Virus record (IMG/VR): IMGVR_UViG_3300007153_000040 | DNA from: a virus | Length of the DNA: 5,959 nucleotides | Strand: one strand, 5' to 3' | Shown: positions 1 through 5,959 of the stretch, in pieces | Numbering within the stretch: position 1 is the stretch's first letter | Layout of the letters: each line of letters starts with the position of its first letter | Translations under genes and position numbers: made by a program | Notes under the pieces: model-generated | The model's database searches: none | Seen by the model: only the letters and a program-made list of their open reading frames with translations | Told to the model about the DNA's origin: nothing

Positions 1-279
1 TATAATACAGGCCATGTCCCTTCATCGGAATTAATTGAAAAATATGAAGATGGTCTCATAGACTATGAAGGATTAGGTAGGGATCGATTTTATGATCCTG
101 TCAAAACTCCTAACGGTTCCCCGCCACTAGCAGGAAAAGACCCAACTACTGACAGCATGGGTATTTTCTATAAGGATGATTTCGGTTACTATAATTGGTA
201 TCGAAACATTGAAGGTGAATACCAGTGGCAAAGAGAAAGTCTAACGGAACGGTCGCAACGCGAAAAGAAAACAAACTGA
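1..279 (+). CDS. VP4: Replication initiation protein, 3'-terminal fragment. Duplicate of 5379..5657 and truncated by the window start.
   Basis: It is in frame from position 1, and 5379 is in frame with the 4680 start. The translation matches the Rep C-terminus (...YNTGHVPSSELIEKYEDGLIDYEG...SQREKKTN*), with the TGA stop at 277..279. Confidence 0.9.
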   Translation, partial: YNTGHVPSSELIEKYEDGLIDYEGLGRDRFYDPVKTPNGSPPLAGKDPTTDSMGIFYKDDFGYYNWYRNIEGEYQWQRESLTERSQREKKTN

Positions 280-581
280 CCACAAGGGCAAGTTCAAGGA
301 TGGATCAAACAACTTTAGTTGCCCCTGATCCTCTGGAACATATGAACGCTTATAGAACGTTCAAACCAAGAATAAGAGAGGCACGAATTCGTGAGAATTC
401 TGAGCCTACAGAAAGATTATCTAATCATAACGATAATCATCAAAAGCATATGGCGCTCAGAGCGGAAGCACATTCATTGCTTCCAAAAGACAGCGTTACA
501 CATAGGTCTCAACTAAAACTAGAGCATGACAATTCACCCCATAAGGTGCGCGATAGAGTTTGCAAAAAAAGACCGGAAAGC
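1..581. repeat. Terminal direct repeat, copy 1, matching 5379..5959. Wrap-around of a circular 5,378-nt genome.
   Basis: Position 1 (tataatacaggccatgtccc) aligns with 5379 and position 581 aligns with 5959, the last base of the window. Several internal stretches compared by eye are identical. The offset is constant at 5,378 nt. Confidence 0.95.
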
Positions 582-641
582 AATGTCAAGGGCAGCGGAG
601 GAGGAAAAAAAGCACGAGTGTTCATACCGTGGTGCAGATAG
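225..641 (+). CDS. Hypothetical hydrophilic, basic protein of 138 aa from GTG 225, or 113 aa from ATG 300. Possibly an internal-scaffolding or DNA-associated protein.
   Basis: The ORF is open to TAG 639..641. GTG 225 is preceded by AGGTGA (213..218) with a 6-nt spacer. The alternative ATG 300 is preceded by AAGGG (284..288). The long form overlaps the Rep 3' end (225..279) in another frame. The sequence is rich in K/R/E/N/S/H with no hydrophobic core, and the C-terminus is basic-aromatic (KKRPESNVKGSGGGKKARVFIPWCR). I recognise no family motif. Confidence 0.6.
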   Translation: MAKRKSNGTVATRKENKLTTRASSRMDQTTLVAPDPLEHMNAYRTFKPRIREARIRENSEPTERLSNHNDNHQKHMALRAEAHSLLPKDSVTHRSQLKLEHDNSPHKVRDRVCKKRPESNVKGSGGGKKARVFIPWCR

Positions 642-687
642 AAAGCGAGCGCACAATTAAAATAGTGCCGTAGCGAGCTTTCTATCT
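636..687. repeat. Imperfect extended hairpin (inverted repeat) overlapping the stop codon of the 225..641 ORF.
   Basis: agatagaaagc (636..646) pairs perfectly with gctttctatct (677..687), giving 11 bp. Inner pairs are gc/gc (649-650 with 673-674) and gcac/gtgc (651..654 with 665..668), around an A/T-rich loop aattaaaata. No U-tract follows. Confidence 0.7.
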
Positions 688-689
688 AT

Positions 690-727
690 TGACAGTGACA
701 GCCGAATTGATTTAGCTGTCACTGTCA
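690..727. repeat. Perfect 13-bp stem with a 12-nt loop, built from tandem TGACAG units. Candidate ssDNA origin or regulatory structure.
   Basis: tgacagtgacagc (690..702) is the exact reverse complement of gctgtcactgtca (715..727). The loop is cgaattgattta (703..714). Each arm is a tandem hexamer (TGACAG x2 / CTGTCA x2). TTGACA lies at 689..694. Confidence 0.85.
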
Positions 728-744
728 CTAATAAGAGGCTAATT

Positions 745-936
745 ATGGAGAACAATATGGTGCGGCGTGTTTTAACGCCGCTTGCTGAAAGACTAGGGAC
801 AGCAGCAGCTGTTTACCTAGTTTCAAAAACTGGCGGTGACGCAAGTTTGGTAAGGGAATTGGCGACTGCGATTGTAGCCATTTCCTTAGTTGGTGCAGAC
901 ATTGTCATCGCTCGACTAATGAGGTCTAAAACGTGA
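745..936 (+). CDS. Small hydrophobic protein of 63 aa. Candidate membrane protein or holin.
   Basis: ATG 745 is preceded by AAGAGG (733..738) with a 6-nt spacer. There is a hydrophobic segment LATAIVAISLVGADIVIARLM (residues 39-59, nt 859..921), a shorter one LGTAAAVYLVS, and a charged C-terminal tail RSKT. The TGA stop overlaps the next gene's GTG start (GTGA at 933..936). Confidence 0.65.
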   Translation: MENNMVRRVLTPLAERLGTAAAVYLVSKTGGDASLVRELATAIVAISLVGADIVIARLMRSKT

Positions 937-1850
937 GTTTTTGGGGCGCAATCGGTTCTATAGGTTCATCCGTTCTAGGTGGACTCTTTGGACGAAAAAA
1001 AAAGGCTGAAAGCTCTACAACTACAAGCTACGTCGATTATGACAGGCTTGTTAGAGATTCAGAAGCAGCAGGGTTTAACCCGCTGACTGCGCTTAGAAAC
1101 GGTGGCTCCGCTGGGTTCTCCGTTTCTACAACTACCTCTCCGAGTACACCGCTATCATCGCCCACCTTGGGCGGTACTGTAGCAAGTGGGATCAATGCTT
1201 TCTTAGAAAACTTTGATCCCCATAAAGATGATGCGAGGGACATAGGATATGGCGTTATCAGGGCGCAATTGCAAAATTTGCAAAATGATCCCCGAAGGAA
1301 AATTGGCTTTGGCGATGTTCCTTCTACTACCGGCCGTAGGGTTGTTTCTTCTTCTCCTGTGCTATCGTCTAGAGATAAAGAAGTAAAATTTAAGGGTTCC
1401 GTTCCCGAAGGTGTCCAGAGAATGGAATTACCGGAAACGGATAACTTAGTAACTACTATCCCAGGCTCTGCCGTTCCTAGCCTTAATCCGTTATCTTCCC
1501 ACCCTCCTGAACTGGAGCGACCAAAGCGACTAAATCCATATCCTTCATATTTAGGATTGGAAATTAACCCGTGGACTTCCTCTGCTGAGGCTTGGGAAGA
1601 TTGGTACGGTGATAACGCTGTCGTTTCACTCGGTGCCACACTCCTTAACGGTTCTCATGATGTTGCGTGGAACAGTTATAGAATGGGCAGATGGGGTTAT
1701 AGAAAAGGCAAAGAACTTTATAAAAATCCGCCATTATCTGCCAAGCGTTTCCGTAAGGAAGATTATCACAATCAAGGCACAAATATTTATGGCTTGCCAT
1801 CAGGTACAATACCGAGTGGCGGCATAGTCCCGAGGCCGAAATTAAAATGA
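933..1850 (+). CDS. VP2: DNA pilot / minor capsid protein (VP2 / protein H-like), 305 aa with a GTG start.
   Basis: GAGG (921..924) lies 8 nt upstream of GTG 933, and there is no in-frame ATG until residue 164. The Gly-rich hydrophobic N-terminus (MSFWGAIGSIGSSVLGGLFGRKKK) followed by AAGFNPLTAL resembles microvirus VP2 N-termini as I recall them. The rest is S/T/P-rich and low complexity. The gene sits immediately upstream of the capsid gene. Confidence 0.82.
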   Translation: MSFWGAIGSIGSSVLGGLFGRKKKAESSTTTSYVDYDRLVRDSEAAGFNPLTALRNGGSAGFSVSTTTSPSTPLSSPTLGGTVASGINAFLENFDPHKDDARDIGYGVIRAQLQNLQNDPRRKIGFGDVPSTTGRRVVSSSPVLSSRDKEVKFKGSVPEGVQRMELPETDNLVTTIPGSAVPSLNPLSSHPPELERPKRLNPYPSYLGLEINPWTSSAEAWEDWYGDNAVVSLGATLLNGSHDVAWNSYRMGRWGYRKGKELYKNPPLSAKRFRKEDYHNQGTNIYGLPSGTIPSGGIVPRPKLK

Positions 1851-1927
1851 AGTGTAAAAGTTGCGCTAAACGAAGAAAAGCAATTAAGCAAACTTTCAAA
1901 AAAATCTTCAAAAGAAAGAAAAAGTAA
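1847..1927 (+). CDS. 26-aa highly basic mini-protein, MKCKSCAKRRKAIKQTFKKIFKRKKK. Candidate J/VP8-like DNA-binding and packaging protein.
   Basis: I translated this by hand because it is below the ORF-track size cut-off. ATG 1847 overlaps the VP2 stop (ATGA), and TAA 1925..1927 overlaps the VP1 start (TAATG). GAGG (1832..1835) lies 11 nt upstream. 14 of 26 residues are K/R and there is a CxxC pair. The position directly before the major capsid gene mirrors gene J in phiX174. Confidence 0.6.
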   Translation: MKCKSCAKRRKAIKQTFKKIFKRKKK

Positions 1928-3567
1928 TGTCACTTTCTAACACCCGTTTAAATACAAATCCTATTTATACTCCGCAGACAATTCGTCGTCAGACAGCGCG
2001 AGGCATAACTAGCGTCGATGCTGGCAAGATGGTTCCTATCGCTGCCTATCCTCTGCTACGCGAAGAAAGTATTGTTTCTGGCCGCGTGCGTTTCAATTTT
2101 GAAATGATGGAAACGGCAGAAATGCTAATGAACGCTGTTAACGTTCGAGTTATGGCGTATTTAGTGCCTACTCTGGCACTTGAGCGTTTCGAAGGCTCTA
2201 TGGATCAGCTGAACCGCTCTTACTCTGGTGAGAGCTTTAAGGATTTGCCAGTCGTCCCATATATTGAAACTCAACTTATGGGCGCACACGGCTCCAATGC
2301 CGTTTATAAATCTATAGGTTTACATGCTCGGCCAAATCAGCGCGTCAATACCATGTATTTGGAAGCCTACAACACTATTTGGAACTTCCGAGCTACAAAC
2401 CGCTCTAAGGATTTGAAAAAGCGTGACAGATTGCAAGCCGATCTCGCACCAGCTTTCTGGCAGCATGAACGATTTAAGCATATCGTTCCTGATTTCGATC
2501 AGGCTGTTATCGATGGTGAAGTGCCGTTAAATGTAACAAACGCTAAGCTGCCAGTGCGCGGCATTGGTTTCAATGCTACAAACAACGGTTGGCGCACAAC
2601 TCAAGACGCTCCGGCTCTCCGTGAGAGCACAGGTAAACTTGGCGTCTCTCCGCATCCTTACCGTTATGACAATCCAACAATTTCAGGACAAAATATCGGT
2701 GGTCAATTCTTCCCCGATATTTTTGCTGAAATGCAAGATAACGGTATTACTGTATCTCTGTCCAACATCGAGCTGGCACGTAAGACACAAGCATTTGCGC
2801 GTCTGCGTGAACAATATAATGGCCACGATGATGAATACATTATCAACCTTCTCATGGATGGTATCACCGTTCCTGAAAAGGCTTTCACACAACCAATGTT
2901 AATTGGTGAACGGAATACAGTATTCGGCATGGCTAAGCGTTATGCAACTGACGGTGCAAATCTGACCGACAGCGTAGTAAACGGTGCGACCTTCGTCGAT
3001 ATGTCTCTACAGTTGCCCCGAATTCCTACAGGTGGCGTTATTATGATTTTGGTGGAAATTACACCAGATCAGATTTTCGAGCGTCAGAAAGACCCGTTCT
3101 TTCATGCGCAAACTGTTGAGGATTTCCCATCGTATCTCCGCGATTACCTCGATCCTGAAAAAGTGTCGGTAGTCCCGAATGATTACATTGACGTCGATCA
3201 CAACAAGCCGACAAGCACCTTCGGTTATGCACCTCTAAACTATGAGTGGCAGCGAGATGCACCATTAGTTGGCGGTAAATTTTACCGTCCTAAAGTGGAT
3301 GCAGGATTTAACGAAGACAGACAAAGAATTTGGGCTGTTGAAACTGCCAATCCTACTTTGTCGGAGAATTTTTATATTTGCTCCGACATTCACAAAAAAC
3401 CTTTCGTTGTTACGAATAAAGACCCGTTTGAAGTTACAAGCACAGGCGAATTGTTAATTCGCGGTTCAACAGTCTTCGGTCAGCAGCTTCACGAAGCTAC
3501 CAACGATTACGATAAAGTCTTGGAAAAAGCGCCAATGGAACGCATCAAGAAAGAGGAAAAGAAATGA
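1927..3567 (+). CDS. VP1: Major capsid protein (Microviridae F / VP1 family), 546 aa.
   Basis: This is the longest ORF. Its size and layout are typical of microvirus capsid proteins. The N-terminal region (...SVDAGKMVPIAAYPLLREESIVSGRVRFNFEM...), the segment YLEAYNTIWNFRA and the mid-protein LSNIELARKTQAFARLREQY parallel phiX174 F segments (YLNIYNNYF; IDIMGLQAAYANLH...) as I recall them. It is flanked by pilot and Rep genes in a roughly 5.4-kb circle. Confidence 0.93.
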   Translation: MSLSNTRLNTNPIYTPQTIRRQTARGITSVDAGKMVPIAAYPLLREESIVSGRVRFNFEMMETAEMLMNAVNVRVMAYLVPTLALERFEGSMDQLNRSYSGESFKDLPVVPYIETQLMGAHGSNAVYKSIGLHARPNQRVNTMYLEAYNTIWNFRATNRSKDLKKRDRLQADLAPAFWQHERFKHIVPDFDQAVIDGEVPLNVTNAKLPVRGIGFNATNNGWRTTQDAPALRESTGKLGVSPHPYRYDNPTISGQNIGGQFFPDIFAEMQDNGITVSLSNIELARKTQAFARLREQYNGHDDEYIINLLMDGITVPEKAFTQPMLIGERNTVFGMAKRYATDGANLTDSVVNGATFVDMSLQLPRIPTGGVIMILVEITPDQIFERQKDPFFHAQTVEDFPSYLRDYLDPEKVSVVPNDYIDVDHNKPTSTFGYAPLNYEWQRDAPLVGGKFYRPKVDAGFNEDRQRIWAVETANPTLSENFYICSDIHKKPFVVTNKDPFEVTSTGELLIRGSTVFGQQLHEATNDYDKVLEKAPMERIKKEEKK

Positions 3568-4094
3568 TTAAGATTGGTGAGATTGACCGTTGGCTGCGTT
3601 TGAAGCCGTCTAGCAGCCTGATGCTTTCAGGCTATGACGCTCGAACAATACGTCTGGACGTTAACTGTCGAGATAAAGCTCGTCTTTATCTTACAGACCA
3701 AATAACAGGCGAGGAACAGTTTCTTGCTACCGTAACAGGCCTCGACCGTGTTGAGTTCGTTAAAGCAGGCAATGTCTGCATCACAACACCTGATGAAGAT
3801 GTGTTTGTTTTTACAAGCGAAGTTGAAGAAACACACCTTCACTTTGACCATCAGGACGTTTATACCCGCATCGCTGAGCGTGCGGCACGAAACACCGATC
3901 TTGAAATTATTCTAGCAAGACAGGCTGAAAATTTTGAAAGACGATTTAACCAAATGGCAGTCGATTTTGAAAATAGACTTGCCTACCAAACAGCCGCACA
4001 AGCTCACTATGAGCCAGAGGGCGTTGCTCCAGCTCCACAACCGGAATCCAAACCGAACGGTGATGAAGGGGCACCCGCTGGAGATAATGAATAG
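3564..4094 (+). CDS. Hypothetical 176-aa protein, function unknown. Candidate scaffolding or spike-type structural protein.
   Basis: ATG 3564 overlaps the VP1 stop (ATGA), with GAGG (3553..3556) 7 nt upstream. The N-terminal half shows alternating, beta-strand-like patterns (TIRLDVNC, RLYLTD, FLATVTG, VEFVKAGNVCITT, VFVFTSEV). The C-terminal half looks helical (RIAERAARNTDLEIILARQAENFERRFNQMAVDFENRLAYQ) and ends in an acidic Pro-rich tail. I recognise no family motif. Confidence 0.72.
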   Translation: MIKIGEIDRWLRLKPSSSLMLSGYDARTIRLDVNCRDKARLYLTDQITGEEQFLATVTGLDRVEFVKAGNVCITTPDEDVFVFTSEVEETHLHFDHQDVYTRIAERAARNTDLEIILARQAENFERRFNQMAVDFENRLAYQTAAQAHYEPEGVAPAPQPESKPNGDEGAPAGDNE

Positions 4095-4608
4095 GTTAAA
4101 CCCTCCGCCAACTGAGGAAATTGAGGTCGTGGATTATTCCACGGCCTTCCGGTCTATGATCGATGAGAATTTCCTCAAATCTATAAAATATAGCGAACAG
4201 CAAATGCGGGCTGATAGAACAGCCGCGCACCCTGATATTCTCGAATTTGAGAAAAAGTTTGTAACTAAATGTTACAAACTTAAAATACCAGTATTTGCAC
4301 ATTGCGTTATGCGAGATAAGCACACGCAAAATGAGCTGTTCGTAAAAGGCCATAGTAAGGCCGTATACGGCAAATCCGCACATAATTACGGATTTGCCGT
4401 TGATATAATACATTCAACCAAGGCTTGGAATTTAGACCGTCTTGCATGGTCTGAATTGGGACATATTGGCAAGGAACTTGCCATACAAGCCGGAATAAAA
4501 ATTGAATGGGGCGGGGATTGGAAGTTTTACGACCCCGCCCACTGGGAAATTAAAAACTGGAAACAGTTTATAGGACCCCAACCCATGCCCCAACTTAATC
4601 TCGATTAG
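4087..4608 (+). CDS. Zinc D-Ala-D-Ala carboxypeptidase-type peptidase, MEROPS family M15 (VanY / Peptidase_M15_4-like). Probable endolysin, 173 aa.
   Basis: It carries the metal-binding signature SAHNYGFAVD (H at 4381..4383, D at 4402..4404) and the downstream WGGDW...DPAHWE (H at 4540..4542), giving the H-x6-D...H triad of M15 / LAS-fold peptidases. The upstream R-x4-QNELF-x-KG is also typical. I chose ATG 4087 as the start because GGAG lies at 4080..4083 and it makes an 8-nt overlap (ATGAATAG) with the upstream stop. The track's 3934 start is a TTG codon with no RBS. There is no N-terminal signal peptide or TM segment. Confidence 0.88.
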   Translation: MNRLNPPPTEEIEVVDYSTAFRSMIDENFLKSIKYSEQQMRADRTAAHPDILEFEKKFVTKCYKLKIPVFAHCVMRDKHTQNELFVKGHSKAVYGKSAHNYGFAVDIIHSTKAWNLDRLAWSELGHIGKELAIQAGIKIEWGGDWKFYDPAHWEIKNWKQFIGPQPMPQLNLD

Positions 4609-4615: not shown

Positions 4616-4641
4616 GCATACACATCCTTGAGTGTGTATGC
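4616..4641. repeat. 9-bp perfect hairpin in the peptidase-Rep intergenic region. Possible weak terminator or structural element.
   Basis: gcatacaca (4616..4624) is the exact reverse complement of tgtgtatgc (4633..4641). The loop is tccttgag and the hairpin is followed by aTTTa. It occludes the upstream in-frame GTG 4632 and ATG 4638 codons. Confidence 0.75.
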
Positions 4642-4679
4642 ATTTAGTGACAGGGATTTTCTGGAGAAGGGAACGATTT

Positions 4680-5657
4680 ATGTGTTTAGCAAGTGGACAA
4701 CTACCGGATGGAACAGAAATACCCTGTCGCGAATGCTGGCAATGCAGAAACGACAAGATCAACGATTGGGTAGGTAGATGTATTGCCGAAAATAAAACCT
4801 CCAAAGCTGCCCATTTCATTACTTTGACTTATGGCAAAGATGATGAAGAGAACTCTGAGCATATAAGATCACAACTACTGACTTATTCTGATGTTCAAAA
4901 ATATTTCAAACTTTTACGATCCAAAGGATATATATTTAGATACTTGGTCGCTGGCGAATATGGATCGTTAAAAGGCCGCTCACATTGGCATTTGATAATG
5001 TACTGGAAAAATGTAGTTCCACCCCACGAACTTACAGACCAGTTTAGAGTTAGGCGGTTCACTGATAGAAATTGGCCACACGGCCACCAAGTATGGAAGA
5101 AAGTTACACCTGAAACCGTTAGATATGTATGCAAATACATTAATAAGGATATTGGAAAAGATGAAAGACAAGCTCACTTTTCCATGAGTAAAAAACCACC
5201 GTTAGGATTTGATTACTTCAACGATCTGGCTGAGAAATACGCAATGCAAGGTTTGGCACCGCAAAACCTGATATATTCTTTCAACGAATACAAGAAGCAT
5301 GGCAAAAAGGTCGAATTTAGAATGACCGGAACTACAGCACAGAATTTTATTAAAAAATTTATTGAAGTTTGGCCGAACTATAATACAGGCCATGTCCCTT
5401 CATCGGAATTAATTGAAAAATATGAAGATGGTCTCATAGACTATGAAGGATTAGGTAGGGATCGATTTTATGATCCTGTCAAAACTCCTAACGGTTCCCC
5501 GCCACTAGCAGGAAAAGACCCAACTACTGACAGCATGGGTATTTTCTATAAGGATGATTTCGGTTACTATAATTGGTATCGAAACATTGAAGGTGAATAC
5601 CAGTGGCAAAGAGAAAGTCTAACGGAACGGTCGCAACGCGAAAAGAAAACAAACTGA
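4680..5657 (+). CDS. VP4: Rolling-circle replication initiation protein (HUH endonuclease; Microviridae VP4 / protein A family), 325 aa.
   Basis: Motif I is HFITLTY (FITLTY at 4815..4832). The HUH motif II is SHWHLIMYW (HWH at 4983..4991). The two-tyrosine motif III is YVCKYINK (5124..5147), compared with phiX174 A protein YVAKYVNK. The N-terminal PCRECWQCR cysteine cluster (4725..4745) is typical of microvirus Rep. I chose ATG 4680 because GGAGAAGGG lies at 4663..4671. The track's 4632 start is a GTG inside a hairpin with no RBS. Confidence 0.93.
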   Translation: MCLASGQLPDGTEIPCRECWQCRNDKINDWVGRCIAENKTSKAAHFITLTYGKDDEENSEHIRSQLLTYSDVQKYFKLLRSKGYIFRYLVAGEYGSLKGRSHWHLIMYWKNVVPPHELTDQFRVRRFTDRNWPHGHQVWKKVTPETVRYVCKYINKDIGKDERQAHFSMSKKPPLGFDYFNDLAEKYAMQGLAPQNLIYSFNEYKKHGKKVEFRMTGTTAQNFIKKFIEVWPNYNTGHVPSSELIEKYEDGLIDYEGLGRDRFYDPVKTPNGSPPLAGKDPTTDSMGIFYKDDFGYYNWYRNIEGEYQWQRESLTERSQREKKTN

Positions 5658-5959
5658 CCACAAGGGCAAGTTCAAGGATGGATCAAACAACTTTAGTTGC
5701 CCCTGATCCTCTGGAACATATGAACGCTTATAGAACGTTCAAACCAAGAATAAGAGAGGCACGAATTCGTGAGAATTCTGAGCCTACAGAAAGATTATCT
5801 AATCATAACGATAATCATCAAAAGCATATGGCGCTCAGAGCGGAAGCACATTCATTGCTTCCAAAAGACAGCGTTACACATAGGTCTCAACTAAAACTAG
5901 AGCATGACAATTCACCCCATAAGGTGCGCGATAGAGTTTGCAAAAAAAGACCGGAAAGC
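5379..5959. repeat. Terminal direct repeat, copy 2, matching 1..581.
   Basis: Same comparison as copy 1. The repeat runs to the window edge, as expected for assembly redundancy of a circular molecule. Confidence 0.95.
5603..5959 (+). CDS. Second, window-truncated copy of the 225..641 hypothetical basic protein. Duplicate created by the wrap-around.
   Basis: 5603 = 225 + 5378, and the ATG alternative is at 5678 = 300 + 5378. The sequence matches copy 1 and the ORF runs off the window end. Confidence 0.55.
   Translation, partial: MAKRKSNGTVATRKENKLTTRASSRMDQTTLVAPDPLEHMNAYRTFKPRIREARIRENSEPTERLSNHNDNHQKHMALRAEAHSLLPKDSVTHRSQLKLEHDNSPHKVRDRVCKKRPES

Follow-up and report, generated by a model that had tools for sequence, protein, structure and literature searches.

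A predicted M15 endolysin in the conserved gene order of a microvirus lineage, with a candidate holin

Introduction

Protein E of phiX174 is an overprinted membrane amurin that inhibits MraY and blocks cell wall synthesis by a non-enzymatic route. [quoted passage not shown] The locus raises the questions of what a wall peptidase does in so small a genome, how it came to be there, and how it would reach its substrate. An earlier note, made from the sequence alone, had read the ORF at 4087-4608 as an endolysin-type M15 (LAS-fold) zinc peptidase of a microvirus, suggestive of capture from a tailed phage or host and in need of a partner to cross the inner membrane.

Results and Discussion

A complete circular microvirus genome

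The ends of the window form an exact 581-nt repeat that closes it to a circle of 5378 nt, and the window is a complete circular microvirus genome. The genes follow one another on the circle as VP2, VP1, a hypothetical gene, M15, and VP4, on one strand throughout (Table 1). A rolling-circle Rep, a major capsid protein (phrog_514), and a pilot protein bear out the earlier assignment to the microviruses, and the peptidase gene, put at about 10% of a 5.4-kb genome in the earlier note, makes up 9.7% of the circle. VP2 homologs occur at the equivalent position in 55 of 83 loci. The 176-aa protein encoded between VP1 and the peptidase had no match in Pfam, PHROG or NCBIfam and is kept in four related loci (L068, L069, L176, and L178) and in 12 of the 29 prophages described below. 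An NCBIfam scan of six window proteins gave a single spurious match below threshold, and promoter and terminator consensus scans returned counts at the shuffle expectation.

Table 1. Features of the window discussed in the text, with the evidence for each.
Feature	Coordinates	Strand	Basis
63-aa two-helix hydrophobic protein, candidate holin; lies immediately 5' of VP2 and overlaps its start	745..936	+	conservation, family HMM, AF2
VP2, DNA pilot protein	933..1850	+	weak PHROG pilot-protein matches
VP1, major capsid protein	1927..3567	+	phrog_514 major head protein, E = 3.5e-11
Conserved 176-aa protein between VP1 and peptidase; stop overlaps peptidase start	3564..4094	+	ORF list
Possible 8-codon N-terminal extension (MKGHPLEI) with upstream ATG	4063..4086	+	public gene call P0001
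GGAG, Shine-Dalgarno-like, 3 nt 5' of ATG 4087	4080..4083	+	sequence reading; function inferred
M15 (LAS-fold) zinc peptidase gene, 173 aa + stop; predicted L-alanyl-D-glutamate endopeptidase/endolysin	4087..4608	+	PF13539, PHROG 465, AF2, Foldseek, PDB profile search
R76...Q81 motif (RDKHTQ)	4312..4329	+	aligned to R-S-x-x-E-Q of LysB4 (6akv) and Ply500 (2vo9)
H99-x6-D106 zinc-ligand motif (HNYGFAVD)	4381..4404	+	aligns to HNYGVAVD of LysB4/Ply500 and HLHGFAVD of RB49 peptidase
D149-P-A-H152, catalytic Asp and third zinc ligand	4531..4542	+	aligns to D-Y-P-H and D-G-x-H of solved L-Ala-D-Glu peptidases
VP4, replication initiator, directly 3' of peptidase	4632..5657	+	PF23343, 65 bits; phrog_942, E = 7e-43

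The window has two of the features given for 'Family 7' or 'Occultatumvirinae': the core genes VP1, VP2, and VP4 on a circular genome of ssDNA-phage size, and the order VP2, VP1, peptidase, VP4. The order 'VP1-peptidase/amidase-VP4-VP2' is conserved in microvirus Families 7 and 14 (PMC9239249), and most 'Occultatumvirinae' carry an M15 peptidase in the gene order seen here (PMC11499846). In pairwise comparison the window VP1 is 44% identical to that of CRPss-151 ('Occultatumvirinae') as against 23% to that of Ebor ('Tainavirinae'), and it shares 44-79% identity with VP1 of related microviruses.

An M15 peptidase with an intact active site

The peptidase ORF runs for 522 nt from the ATG at 4087 to the TAG at 4606-4608, is nested in a longer open frame from 3934, and at its start overlaps the end of the ORF at 3564-4094. 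In the public gene call P0001 (181 aa, 100% identical) translation begins instead at the ATG at 4063. We prefer ATG 4087 because the genes of the relatives L176 and L178, whose products begin MKKLDPP... and MEPGTPE..., start at the position aligned with it.

The earlier note proposed an HMM search as a check, and Pfam PF13539 (Peptidase_M15_4) matched residues 96-154 with 32.4 bits, above its gathering cut-off of 25 (E = 1.4e-7); VanY (PF02557) stayed below threshold (16.6 vs 25). PHROG 465, annotated 'endolysin', matched at E = 3.9e-17, and PF13539 is found in nearly all of the 222 database homologs at E <= 1e-5. The strings quoted in the note are all present: SAHNYGFAVD at residues 97-106, WGGDW at 141-145, and DPAHWE at 149-154. 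On alignment of 66 homologs R76, Q81, H99, D106, D149, P150, A151, and H152 are invariant, a set that includes the proposed H/D/H zinc ligands H99 (nt 4381-4383), D106 (nt 4402-4404), and H152 (nt 4540-4542). The microvirus proteins differ from the tailed-phage endopeptidases in a conserved stretch of about 45 extra residues N-terminal to the catalytic core, in which Q38, R41, A42, and R44 are nearly invariant, and in an additional invariant histidine, H109.

The AF2 model of the peptidase (pLDDT 92, pTM 0.86) had 13 PDB matches at E <= 1e-3 in Foldseek, all of them M15 enzymes. The best five were ChiX, Ply500, LysECD7, LysB4, and the RB49 peptidase. Every one of these is an L-Ala-D-Glu endopeptidase, and four are endolysins of phages. 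Hedgehog N-terminal domains ranked lower, as an LAS fold would predict. A PDB profile search gave LysB4 (1.3e-14) and Ply500 (6.6e-14), and all five of its matches fell within the same set. Ply500 (2vo9), LysB4 (6akv), LysECD7 (8q2g), RB49 (23ri), and T5 (2mxz) have the M15 fold and the R...Q, H-x6-D, and D-x-x-H motifs in common with the window protein, and the T5, RB49, and LysECD7 enzymes are, like it, single globular domains lacking a wall-binding module. Identity to the tailed-phage endopeptidases is 20-26%, and their genes lie in a lysis cassette whereas the window gene lies in a 5.4-kb ssDNA genome. By sequence and predicted fold the product of 4087-4608 is an M15/LAS zinc peptidase with its catalytic residues intact and a predicted activity; HMM match, invariant residues, fold, and closest solved structures all agree with the identity first proposed. 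The bond cut is most likely L-Ala-D-Glu in peptidoglycan stem peptides, by analogy with these relatives only.

Judged by hydropathy, the protein has no signal peptide or SAR segment, as the earlier note had said: its N-terminus is acidic, and no 19-residue segment has a Kyte-Doolittle mean above 0.67.

The gene has diverged together with the capsid gene

The synteny of VP1, M15, and VP4 is kept in 95 of 102 related loci. VP1 and VP4 also flank M15 in all 29 homologs from bacterial genomes, which are therefore microvirus prophages; they occur only in Hyphomicrobiales and Rhodobacterales. VP1 identity correlates with M15 identity (Pearson 0.76), and of 22 near-complete genomes selected solely on VP1, 21 carry M15. 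A single clade holds all 107 microvirus copies, separate from 54 tailed-phage homologs, the nearest of which are 27-34% identical and all about equally distant within the sample.

These comparisons indicate that M15 is not a recent capture and has been passed on vertically with the capsid gene in this lineage. Acquisition from a tailed phage or host, as suggested in the earlier note, can only be an ancient event; with the sampled tailed-phage homologs about equidistant, no donor stood out among them. That the gene might instead be a dispensable moron, recently taken up by horizontal transfer, has precedents in the independent M15_3 acquisitions documented in gut microviruses (PMC3394797) and in the reported recombination of peptidases between microvirus families (PMC9239249). 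Against it stand the low identity to the closest tailed-phage homologs, the single clade, and the synteny and co-divergence with VP1 throughout the lineage, and we regard it as extremely improbable. M15 is nonetheless not indispensable across the subfamily, since CRPss-154 and 'Occultatumvirinae' subgroups 6 and 7 have no peptidase (PMC11499846).

The host of the window phage is probably an alphaproteobacterium. All cellular homologs found lie in microvirus prophages of Hyphomicrobiales or Rhodobacterales, which restricts the hosts likely for this uncultured phage.

A conserved small membrane protein is a candidate holin

The need for a membrane partner, raised in the earlier note, was a fair inference, and the conserved 63-aa protein encoded just upstream of VP2 is a concrete candidate for the missing holin. 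Of 53 related loci, 52 have a similar short hydrophobic ORF 5' of VP2. A family HMM built with the window protein left out matched it with 44 bits (E = 7.8e-14). R16, G18, G30, and D52 are invariant in the family and the C-terminus is basic. AF2 predicts a helical hairpin (H2-29 and H33-62, pLDDT 80); a Foldseek search of this model against viral structures gave nothing below E = 0.89, an outcome to be expected of such a fold.

The family comprises 571 cluster representatives, all from microviruses. PF23987 (Phage_holin_10) was matched weakly by 22 of 146 members (best E = 3.3e-6); the window protein itself has no Pfam match, PF23987 included. A search of 63 tailed-phage loci around M15 genes gave no match to the family at E <= 1, and tblastn of the 63-aa protein against 50,697 phage records returned microvirus matches only, with marginal E-values. 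A literature search for the Pam3 gp28 holin of the PF23987 family found no paper.

M15 and the 63-aa family are both present in 70 of 78 genomes, a comparison that counts just three M15-negative genomes and ignores kinship. Negatives are few because most genomes retrieved by the profile-based VP1 scan have M15, and a search with CRPss-154 VP1 as sole query found no relatives of this peptidase-less phage. Two isolates, CRPss-154 and Ebor, have neither M15 nor the 63-aa family, and five M15-positive genomes lack the family or encode another small protein instead. The candidate gene is not adjacent to the peptidase gene: VP2, VP1, and the 176-aa ORF come between, and the distance to the peptidase gene downstream is about 3.1 kb. 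In a one-strand genome of 5.4 kb, adjacency of holin and endolysin genes may matter less.

Other small ORFs were inspected as lysis genes. A lipobox search for a spanin or outer-membrane factor gave no credible conserved candidate in the window; the sole candidate on the + strand is a 29-aa ORF (2018-2107) overprinted in VP1. An ORF overprinted in VP2 (1249-1386; 45 aa, strong hydrophobic helix) was considered as an E-like lysis gene, but neither its position nor its sequence is kept in the closest complete relatives, L176 and L178; it is probably compositional, because the VP2 +1 frame gives different hydrophobic ORFs in each genome. Many relatives, unlike the window, have a further ORF ahead of VP2 that encodes 30-35 aa with a single hydrophobic helix. 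A search for a XerCD/dif-like attachment site gave nothing convincing: the best matches to the Ebor and E. coli dif queries (20/28 and 16/28) lie inside coding regions.

Lysis, entry, or an accessory role

The reading that we favor, with a probability of about 0.8, is that the M15 protein is an endolysin that frees progeny from a probable alphaproteobacterial host, with the 63-aa protein as the most likely candidate for its holin partner. The soluble single-domain zinc metallopeptidase would accumulate in the cytoplasm because it has no export signal, and would reach the wall only once the inner membrane is breached, most likely by the 63-aa two-helix protein acting as a holin. It would then cut the L-Ala-D-Glu bond of the stem peptides and release the progeny. 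We infer the lytic rather than entry role and the holin partnership, like the bond specificity. ChiX is a signal-less M15 L-Ala-D-Glu endopeptidase that depends on a holin-like membrane protein, ChiW. The ChiX of Serratia marcescens (5opz) is the best structural match to the window protein (E = 1.6e-7), although ChiX and ChiW serve bacterial protein secretion and the system proposed here would serve phage release. Cultured relatives with the M15 gene lyse their hosts, and the authors of those studies assign the gene to lysis (PMC11499846, PMC9512667). Our search of the literature found no enzyme assay of an M15 protein from any microvirus.

More specifically, the two proteins may form a true holin-endolysin system split across a 5.4-kb ssDNA phage genome and operating with no spanin, a proposal that we hold tentatively and at slightly less than even odds. 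If true, the 63-aa protein would be the first holin family recognized in Microviridae, and the family a remote relative of the tailed-phage Pam3 gp28 holin family.

The peptidase could instead travel in or on the capsid and open the peptidoglycan locally while the pilot protein delivers the DNA. The conserved residues ahead of the catalytic core of the microvirus proteins could serve such a role, and M15 domains do occur within very large tailed-phage proteins (phrog_1768, a 1577-position profile; BFVD matches of 800-1190 aa). Entry of the phiX174 type, however, requires no wall hydrolase, there is not much room to spare in a T=1 capsid, the window protein is free-standing and unfused to VP1 or VP2, and its closest solved relatives are endolysins. 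Traces of Ebor's unrelated wall hydrolase Gp7 were detected in purified virions, but carry-over from the lysate would also give such amounts. We consider a role in entry unlikely. Nor do we give much credence to lysis by the small membrane protein alone, as an amurin or membrane-disrupting protein in the manner of phiX174 E, with the peptidase as an accessory that hastens or finishes the breakdown of the wall. The near-universal small hydrophobic ORFs 5' of VP2 and the five M15 genomes with another small protein or none of the 63-aa family are compatible with it, and the peptidase-less isolate CRPss-154 was recovered by monitoring culture lysis (PMC11499846). CRPss-154 also lacks the 63-aa family, however, and its lysis therefore cannot be credited to that family, while retention of M15 with an intact active site in 21 of 22 VP1-selected genomes argues for strong selection on the enzyme. 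An endolysin remains the reading that we prefer.

Relation to other microvirus wall hydrolases

Wall peptidases in Microviridae were first reported as M15_3 genes in 11 gut microviruses and proposed to be endolysins (Roux et al. 2012, PMC3394797), and the M15 gene and its gene order have been described before in microviruses of Alphaproteobacteria ('Family 7' of Kirchberger et al., 'Occultatumvirinae'). The earlier note's mention of sporadic reports was correct but understated (PMC3394797, PMC9239249, PMC11499846). The gut Gokushovirinae and Alpavirinae genes belong to another Pfam subfamily (M15_3, PF08291) than the window gene (PF13539). They are sporadic and varied in position, with at least two independent acquisitions inferred (PMC3394797), whereas M15 in the window lineage is stable and near-universal. 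Lysis of the phiX174 kind is probably not general to microviruses: a whole lineage infecting Alphaproteobacteria has a predicted wall-degrading enzyme, which is already in the literature, and the window is one further member.

The sole microvirus wall hydrolase with zymogram evidence is Gp7 of the Rhodobacter microvirus Ebor ('Tainavirinae'), whose gene lies similarly between VP1 and VP4. Homology to the window peptidase was rejected (BLASTP E = 1.8; Gp7 has no Pfam M15 match), and by sequence Gp7 is a non-orthologous replacement. The only assayed microvirus hydrolase comes from a family other than M15.

Closer counterparts are the M15 or 'endolysin' proteins of Roseobacter phage CRPss-151 (PP558214) and of Rhizobium RHph_TM24 and RHph_Y2, with 41-45% identity over 84-95% of the length; in GenBank, relatives carry the annotation 'endolysin' or 'M15 family metallopeptidase'. 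Among named viruses the nearest to the window are the Tortoise and Flyfo microviruses (55-57%), which are unannotated. In these microviruses M15 occupies the VP1-VP4 slot with the gene order and predicted role seen in the window, and the differences lie only in sequence divergence and base composition. The GC content of the window is 43.7%, as against about 50-62% in the first 12 prophage relatives examined and a reported 59-60% in the Rhizobium microviruses.

Identity and predicted fold of the M15 peptidase

The product of the M15 ORF (173 aa) matched Pfam Peptidase_M15_4 at 32.4 bits, against a gathering cut-off of 25 (E = 1.4e-7), and PHROG 465, 'endolysin' (E = 3.9e-17). It contains all three strings quoted in an earlier note, SAHNYGFAVD, WGGDW and DPAHWE, and across 66 aligned homologs R76, Q81, H99, D106, H109, D149, P150, A151 and H152 are invariant, covering the M15 signature of Arg, H-x6-D and D-x-x-H. 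When the PDB was searched by sequence and by profile, the only matches were L-alanyl-D-glutamate endopeptidases, namely LysB4 (1.3e-14), Ply500 (6.6e-14), LysECD7 (9.4e-11), the RB49 peptidase (2.9e-10) and ChiX (1.7e-7), whose M15 motifs align with those of the query residue by residue. An AlphaFold2 model made from the homolog alignment is confident (pLDDT 92, pTM 0.86); the same five enzymes are its top Foldseek matches, followed by the VanXY and LdcB carboxypeptidases and, lower down, by Hedgehog N-terminal domains, as expected for the LAS fold. The HMM score, invariant residues and PDB relatives bear out the earlier identification of an M15 peptidase, and the estimate that it takes about 10% of a 5.4-kb genome agrees with 9.7% of the 5378-nt circle. 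The start at 4087 aligns with the gene start in two related genomes; a public gene call uses an alternative ATG at 4063. The protein is a single domain whose N-terminus is acidic. Its hydropathy peaks at a Kyte-Doolittle 19-mer value of 0.67, so no segment is hydrophobic and both a Sec signal and a SAR anchor are absent. Both points had been read correctly beforehand, as had the need of an enzyme lacking an export signal for a membrane partner.

Distribution and inheritance of the M15 gene

A tblastn search of 50,697 phage records with the M15 protein matched 243. The best matches, 55–57% identical, are Tortoise and Flyfo microviruses without annotation; also among the best are Roseobacter microviruses CRPss-151, -152, -153 and -155 ('M15 family metallopeptidase') and Rhizobium microviruses ('endolysin protein'). 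Of the 102 related loci holding all three genes, 95 have VP1, M15 and VP4 in this order on one strand, separated by short gaps. Scanning 185,579 species genomes yielded 29 M15 loci, in Hyphomicrobiales or Rhodobacterales only, and since microvirus VP1 and VP4 flank the peptidase in 29/29, these 'bacterial' homologs are integrated microviruses.

The earlier note had suggested capture from a tailed phage or host, and looked to a phylogeny with tailed-phage and bacterial homologs for the donor. As a recent event, capture is contradicted. Identities to the window correlate between VP1 and M15 (Pearson 0.76, n = 99 loci), the tailed-phage homologs are just 27–34% identical to the M15 protein, and the gene is present in 21/22 near-complete genomes chosen by VP1 alone. 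A neighbour-joining tree of 161 sequences, built without bootstrap and with a tailed-phage sample found via patterns from the M15 protein, places 107/107 microvirus copies cleanly apart from 54 tailed-phage homologs, and the bacterial copies are prophages. The M15 gene is therefore old, vertically inherited and near-universal in this lineage.

M15_3 peptidases were reported in 11 gut microviruses, with an endolysin role proposed, by Roux et al. 2012 (PMC3394797). In Families 2, 7 and 14, lysis-associated genes have a conserved place between VP1 and VP4 according to Kirchberger et al. 2022 (PMC9239249), who give 'VP1-peptidase/amidase-VP4-VP2' as the arrangement for Families 7 and 14. One family in that paper, which we take to be Family 7, includes both lytic and temperate members infecting Rhodobacteraceae and Hyphomicrobiaceae. 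A 'lysis' protein belongs to the usual complement of such genomes in Zucker et al. 2022 (PMC9753089), and a Rhizobium microvirus paper (PMC9512667) gives the basic gene set as capsid, rep and endolysin. Zhang et al. 2024 (PMC11499846) found an M15 peptidase in most 'Occultatumvirinae', with the prophage order VP2, VP1, peptidase, VP4; CRPss-154 and subgroups 6 and 7 are without it. The gene is thus already known; it is real, looks functional and is ordinary for its lineage.

A candidate holin upstream of VP2

In 52/53 related genomes, VP2 is closely preceded by a small + strand ORF that encodes a hydrophobic helix. An HMM from 14 such ORFs, the window excluded, recovered the window's 63-aa ORF at 44 bits (E = 7.8e-14, 96 frames). 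R16, G18, G30 and D52 are invariant in this family, the C-terminus is basic, and AlphaFold2 predicts a helical hairpin (H2-29 and H33-62, turn at G30). At E <= 1e-3, a search of 1.84 billion proteins assigned 571 cluster representatives to the family. In an annotated search all members lay on microvirus-sized contigs, and the sole functional name was one automatic mannosyltransferase label, taken to be spurious. Pfam PF23987 (Phage_holin_10, Pam3 gp28 family) was matched by 22/146 members (best E = 3.3e-6); no other Pfam family recurred among the 146, and the window's own protein had no Pfam match. The isolates CRPss-154 and Ebor, which lack M15, also lack this family. Among 78 near-complete genomes, 70 have both genes, 5 M15 only, 1 the small protein only and 2 neither (Fisher p = 0.02, counting genomes regardless of phylogeny and with few M15 negatives).

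We infer that the 63-aa protein is a reasonable holin candidate, and put the chance that it is the cognate holin of the peptidase slightly below even. If so, this 5.4-kb ssDNA phage would have a complete two-component lysis system and Microviridae their first holin family. Counting against a holin are the position of the ORF, which is not adjacent to the peptidase gene, the lack of relatives beside M15 genes in 63 tailed-phage loci, and the lack of a recognisable spanin in the window.

In many marine relatives a second tiny ORF, encoding 30–35 aa with a single strong hydrophobic helix, separates the holin-like ORF from VP2 and could be antiholin-like or another lysis accessory; the window has none because its 63-aa ORF directly overlaps the VP2 start. 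In a few M15-positive genomes another, unrelated small hydrophobic ORF replaces the family upstream of VP2. Non-orthologous replacement is typical of holins.

Features of the window and of related loci (window genes from the ORF list)
Feature	Genome	Coordinates	Strand
Basic ORF, 138 aa	Window	225-641	+
Inverted repeat, 21 nt	Window	687-730	
Hydrophobic ORF, 63 aa	Window	745-936	+
VP2 pilot protein	Window	933-1850	+
Overprinted ORF, 45 aa	Window	1249-1386	+
VP1 capsid protein	Window	1927-3567	+
ORF, 176 aa	Window	3564-4094	+
M15 ORF, 173 aa	Window	4087-4608	+
Hairpin	Window	4616-4641	
VP4 Rep	Window	4632-5657	+
Second tiny ORF (also in many other loci)	L002	1616-1711	
Second tiny ORF	L081	2927-3022	
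Second tiny ORF	L115	1600-1704	
Unrelated hydrophobic ORF	L073	2221-2376	
Unrelated hydrophobic ORF	L075		
Unrelated hydrophobic ORF	L114	1941-2069	
Slot protein, 191 aa	L182 (CRPss-154)	5145-5720	

Proposed lysis mechanism and alternatives

In the best-supported mechanism, the enzyme would be synthesised in soluble form in the cytoplasm, perhaps by translation coupled to that of the 176-aa ORF, whose stop overlaps the M15 start. Permeabilisation of the inner membrane, a step requiring a partner, would give it access to peptidoglycan, where it would cut stem peptides at L-Ala-D-Glu; the wall would fail and progeny be released.

A virion-borne entry enzyme is less likely: the peptidase is free-standing and its relatives are endolysins, although large tailed-phage virion proteins include M15 domains and the microvirus M15 proteins share a conserved N-terminal stretch of ~45 residues (n = 66). 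Among microvirus wall hydrolases in the literature searched, only Ebor Gp7 (PMC11980548) has zymogram evidence; it was detected in virions in trace amounts and is not homologous to the M15 protein. The existence of relatives without peptidase suggests another alternative, in which a small membrane protein does most of the lysis with the peptidase as helper, but CRPss-154 also lacks the 63-aa protein family. In CRPss-154 a 191-aa protein occupies the position between the post-VP1 ORF and Rep; it had no match in a Pfam search and might be an unrecognised replacement lysis protein.

A 45-aa ORF overprinted in the VP2 +1 frame recalls phiX174 E; its product has a basic tail and a very hydrophobic helix, whose mean Kyte-Doolittle value over 17 residues is 2.79. 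In L176 and L178, the two closest complete relatives, this ORF is not conserved and the same frame holds other hydrophobic ORFs, so its origin is probably compositional.

Genome layout and non-coding elements

The window ends in an exact 581-nt repeat (1-581 = 5379-5959) and is therefore a complete circle of 5378 nt written with an overlap, in which ORFs 146-283 and 391-516 recur at 5524-5661 and 5769-5894. It is identical to IMG/VR contig UViG_3300005311_000015, and every credible gene is on the + strand. L176 (19.2-kb contig) and L178 (22.7-kb contig) are assembled as head-to-tail concatemers of 3–4 copies of a 5.3–5.5-kb unit, a form that probably arose as an artefact when circular ssDNA genomes were amplified or assembled. 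VP1 had no Pfam match at E <= 0.01 and a modest PHROG match (E = 3.5e-11); curated capsid models cover the capsid of this lineage poorly. The GC content (43.7%) is near that of marine relatives (median 40%; CRPss-151 44%). It is far lower than in the first 12 prophage relatives examined (about 50–62%), which are all Hyphomicrobiales and, despite this gap, resemble the window most closely in VP1 (up to 67%). The host cannot be inferred from the closest capsid.

The very basic 138-aa ORF starts within the VP4 3' end in another frame, a layout recurring in L176 and L178, and its product ends in a conserved CKKRPE...IPWCR motif. It resembles Ebor Gp10, a virion protein proposed to neutralise DNA charge, and is probably a DNA-binding internal protein.

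The non-coding stretch directly upstream of the 63-aa ORF holds an inverted repeat, imperfect overall but with a 12-bp core that pairs perfectly, GACAGTGACAGC / GCTGTCACTGTC. Related prophages are linearised in this region, and no dif-like site was recognised. Between the peptidase stop and the VP4 start lies a perfect 9-bp hairpin, GCATACACA / TGTGTATGC (z = -3.3 vs shuffles). L176 has the same stem and L178 a strong hairpin of other sequence in the same place, suggesting a conserved structural element, e.g. a terminator or replication signal.
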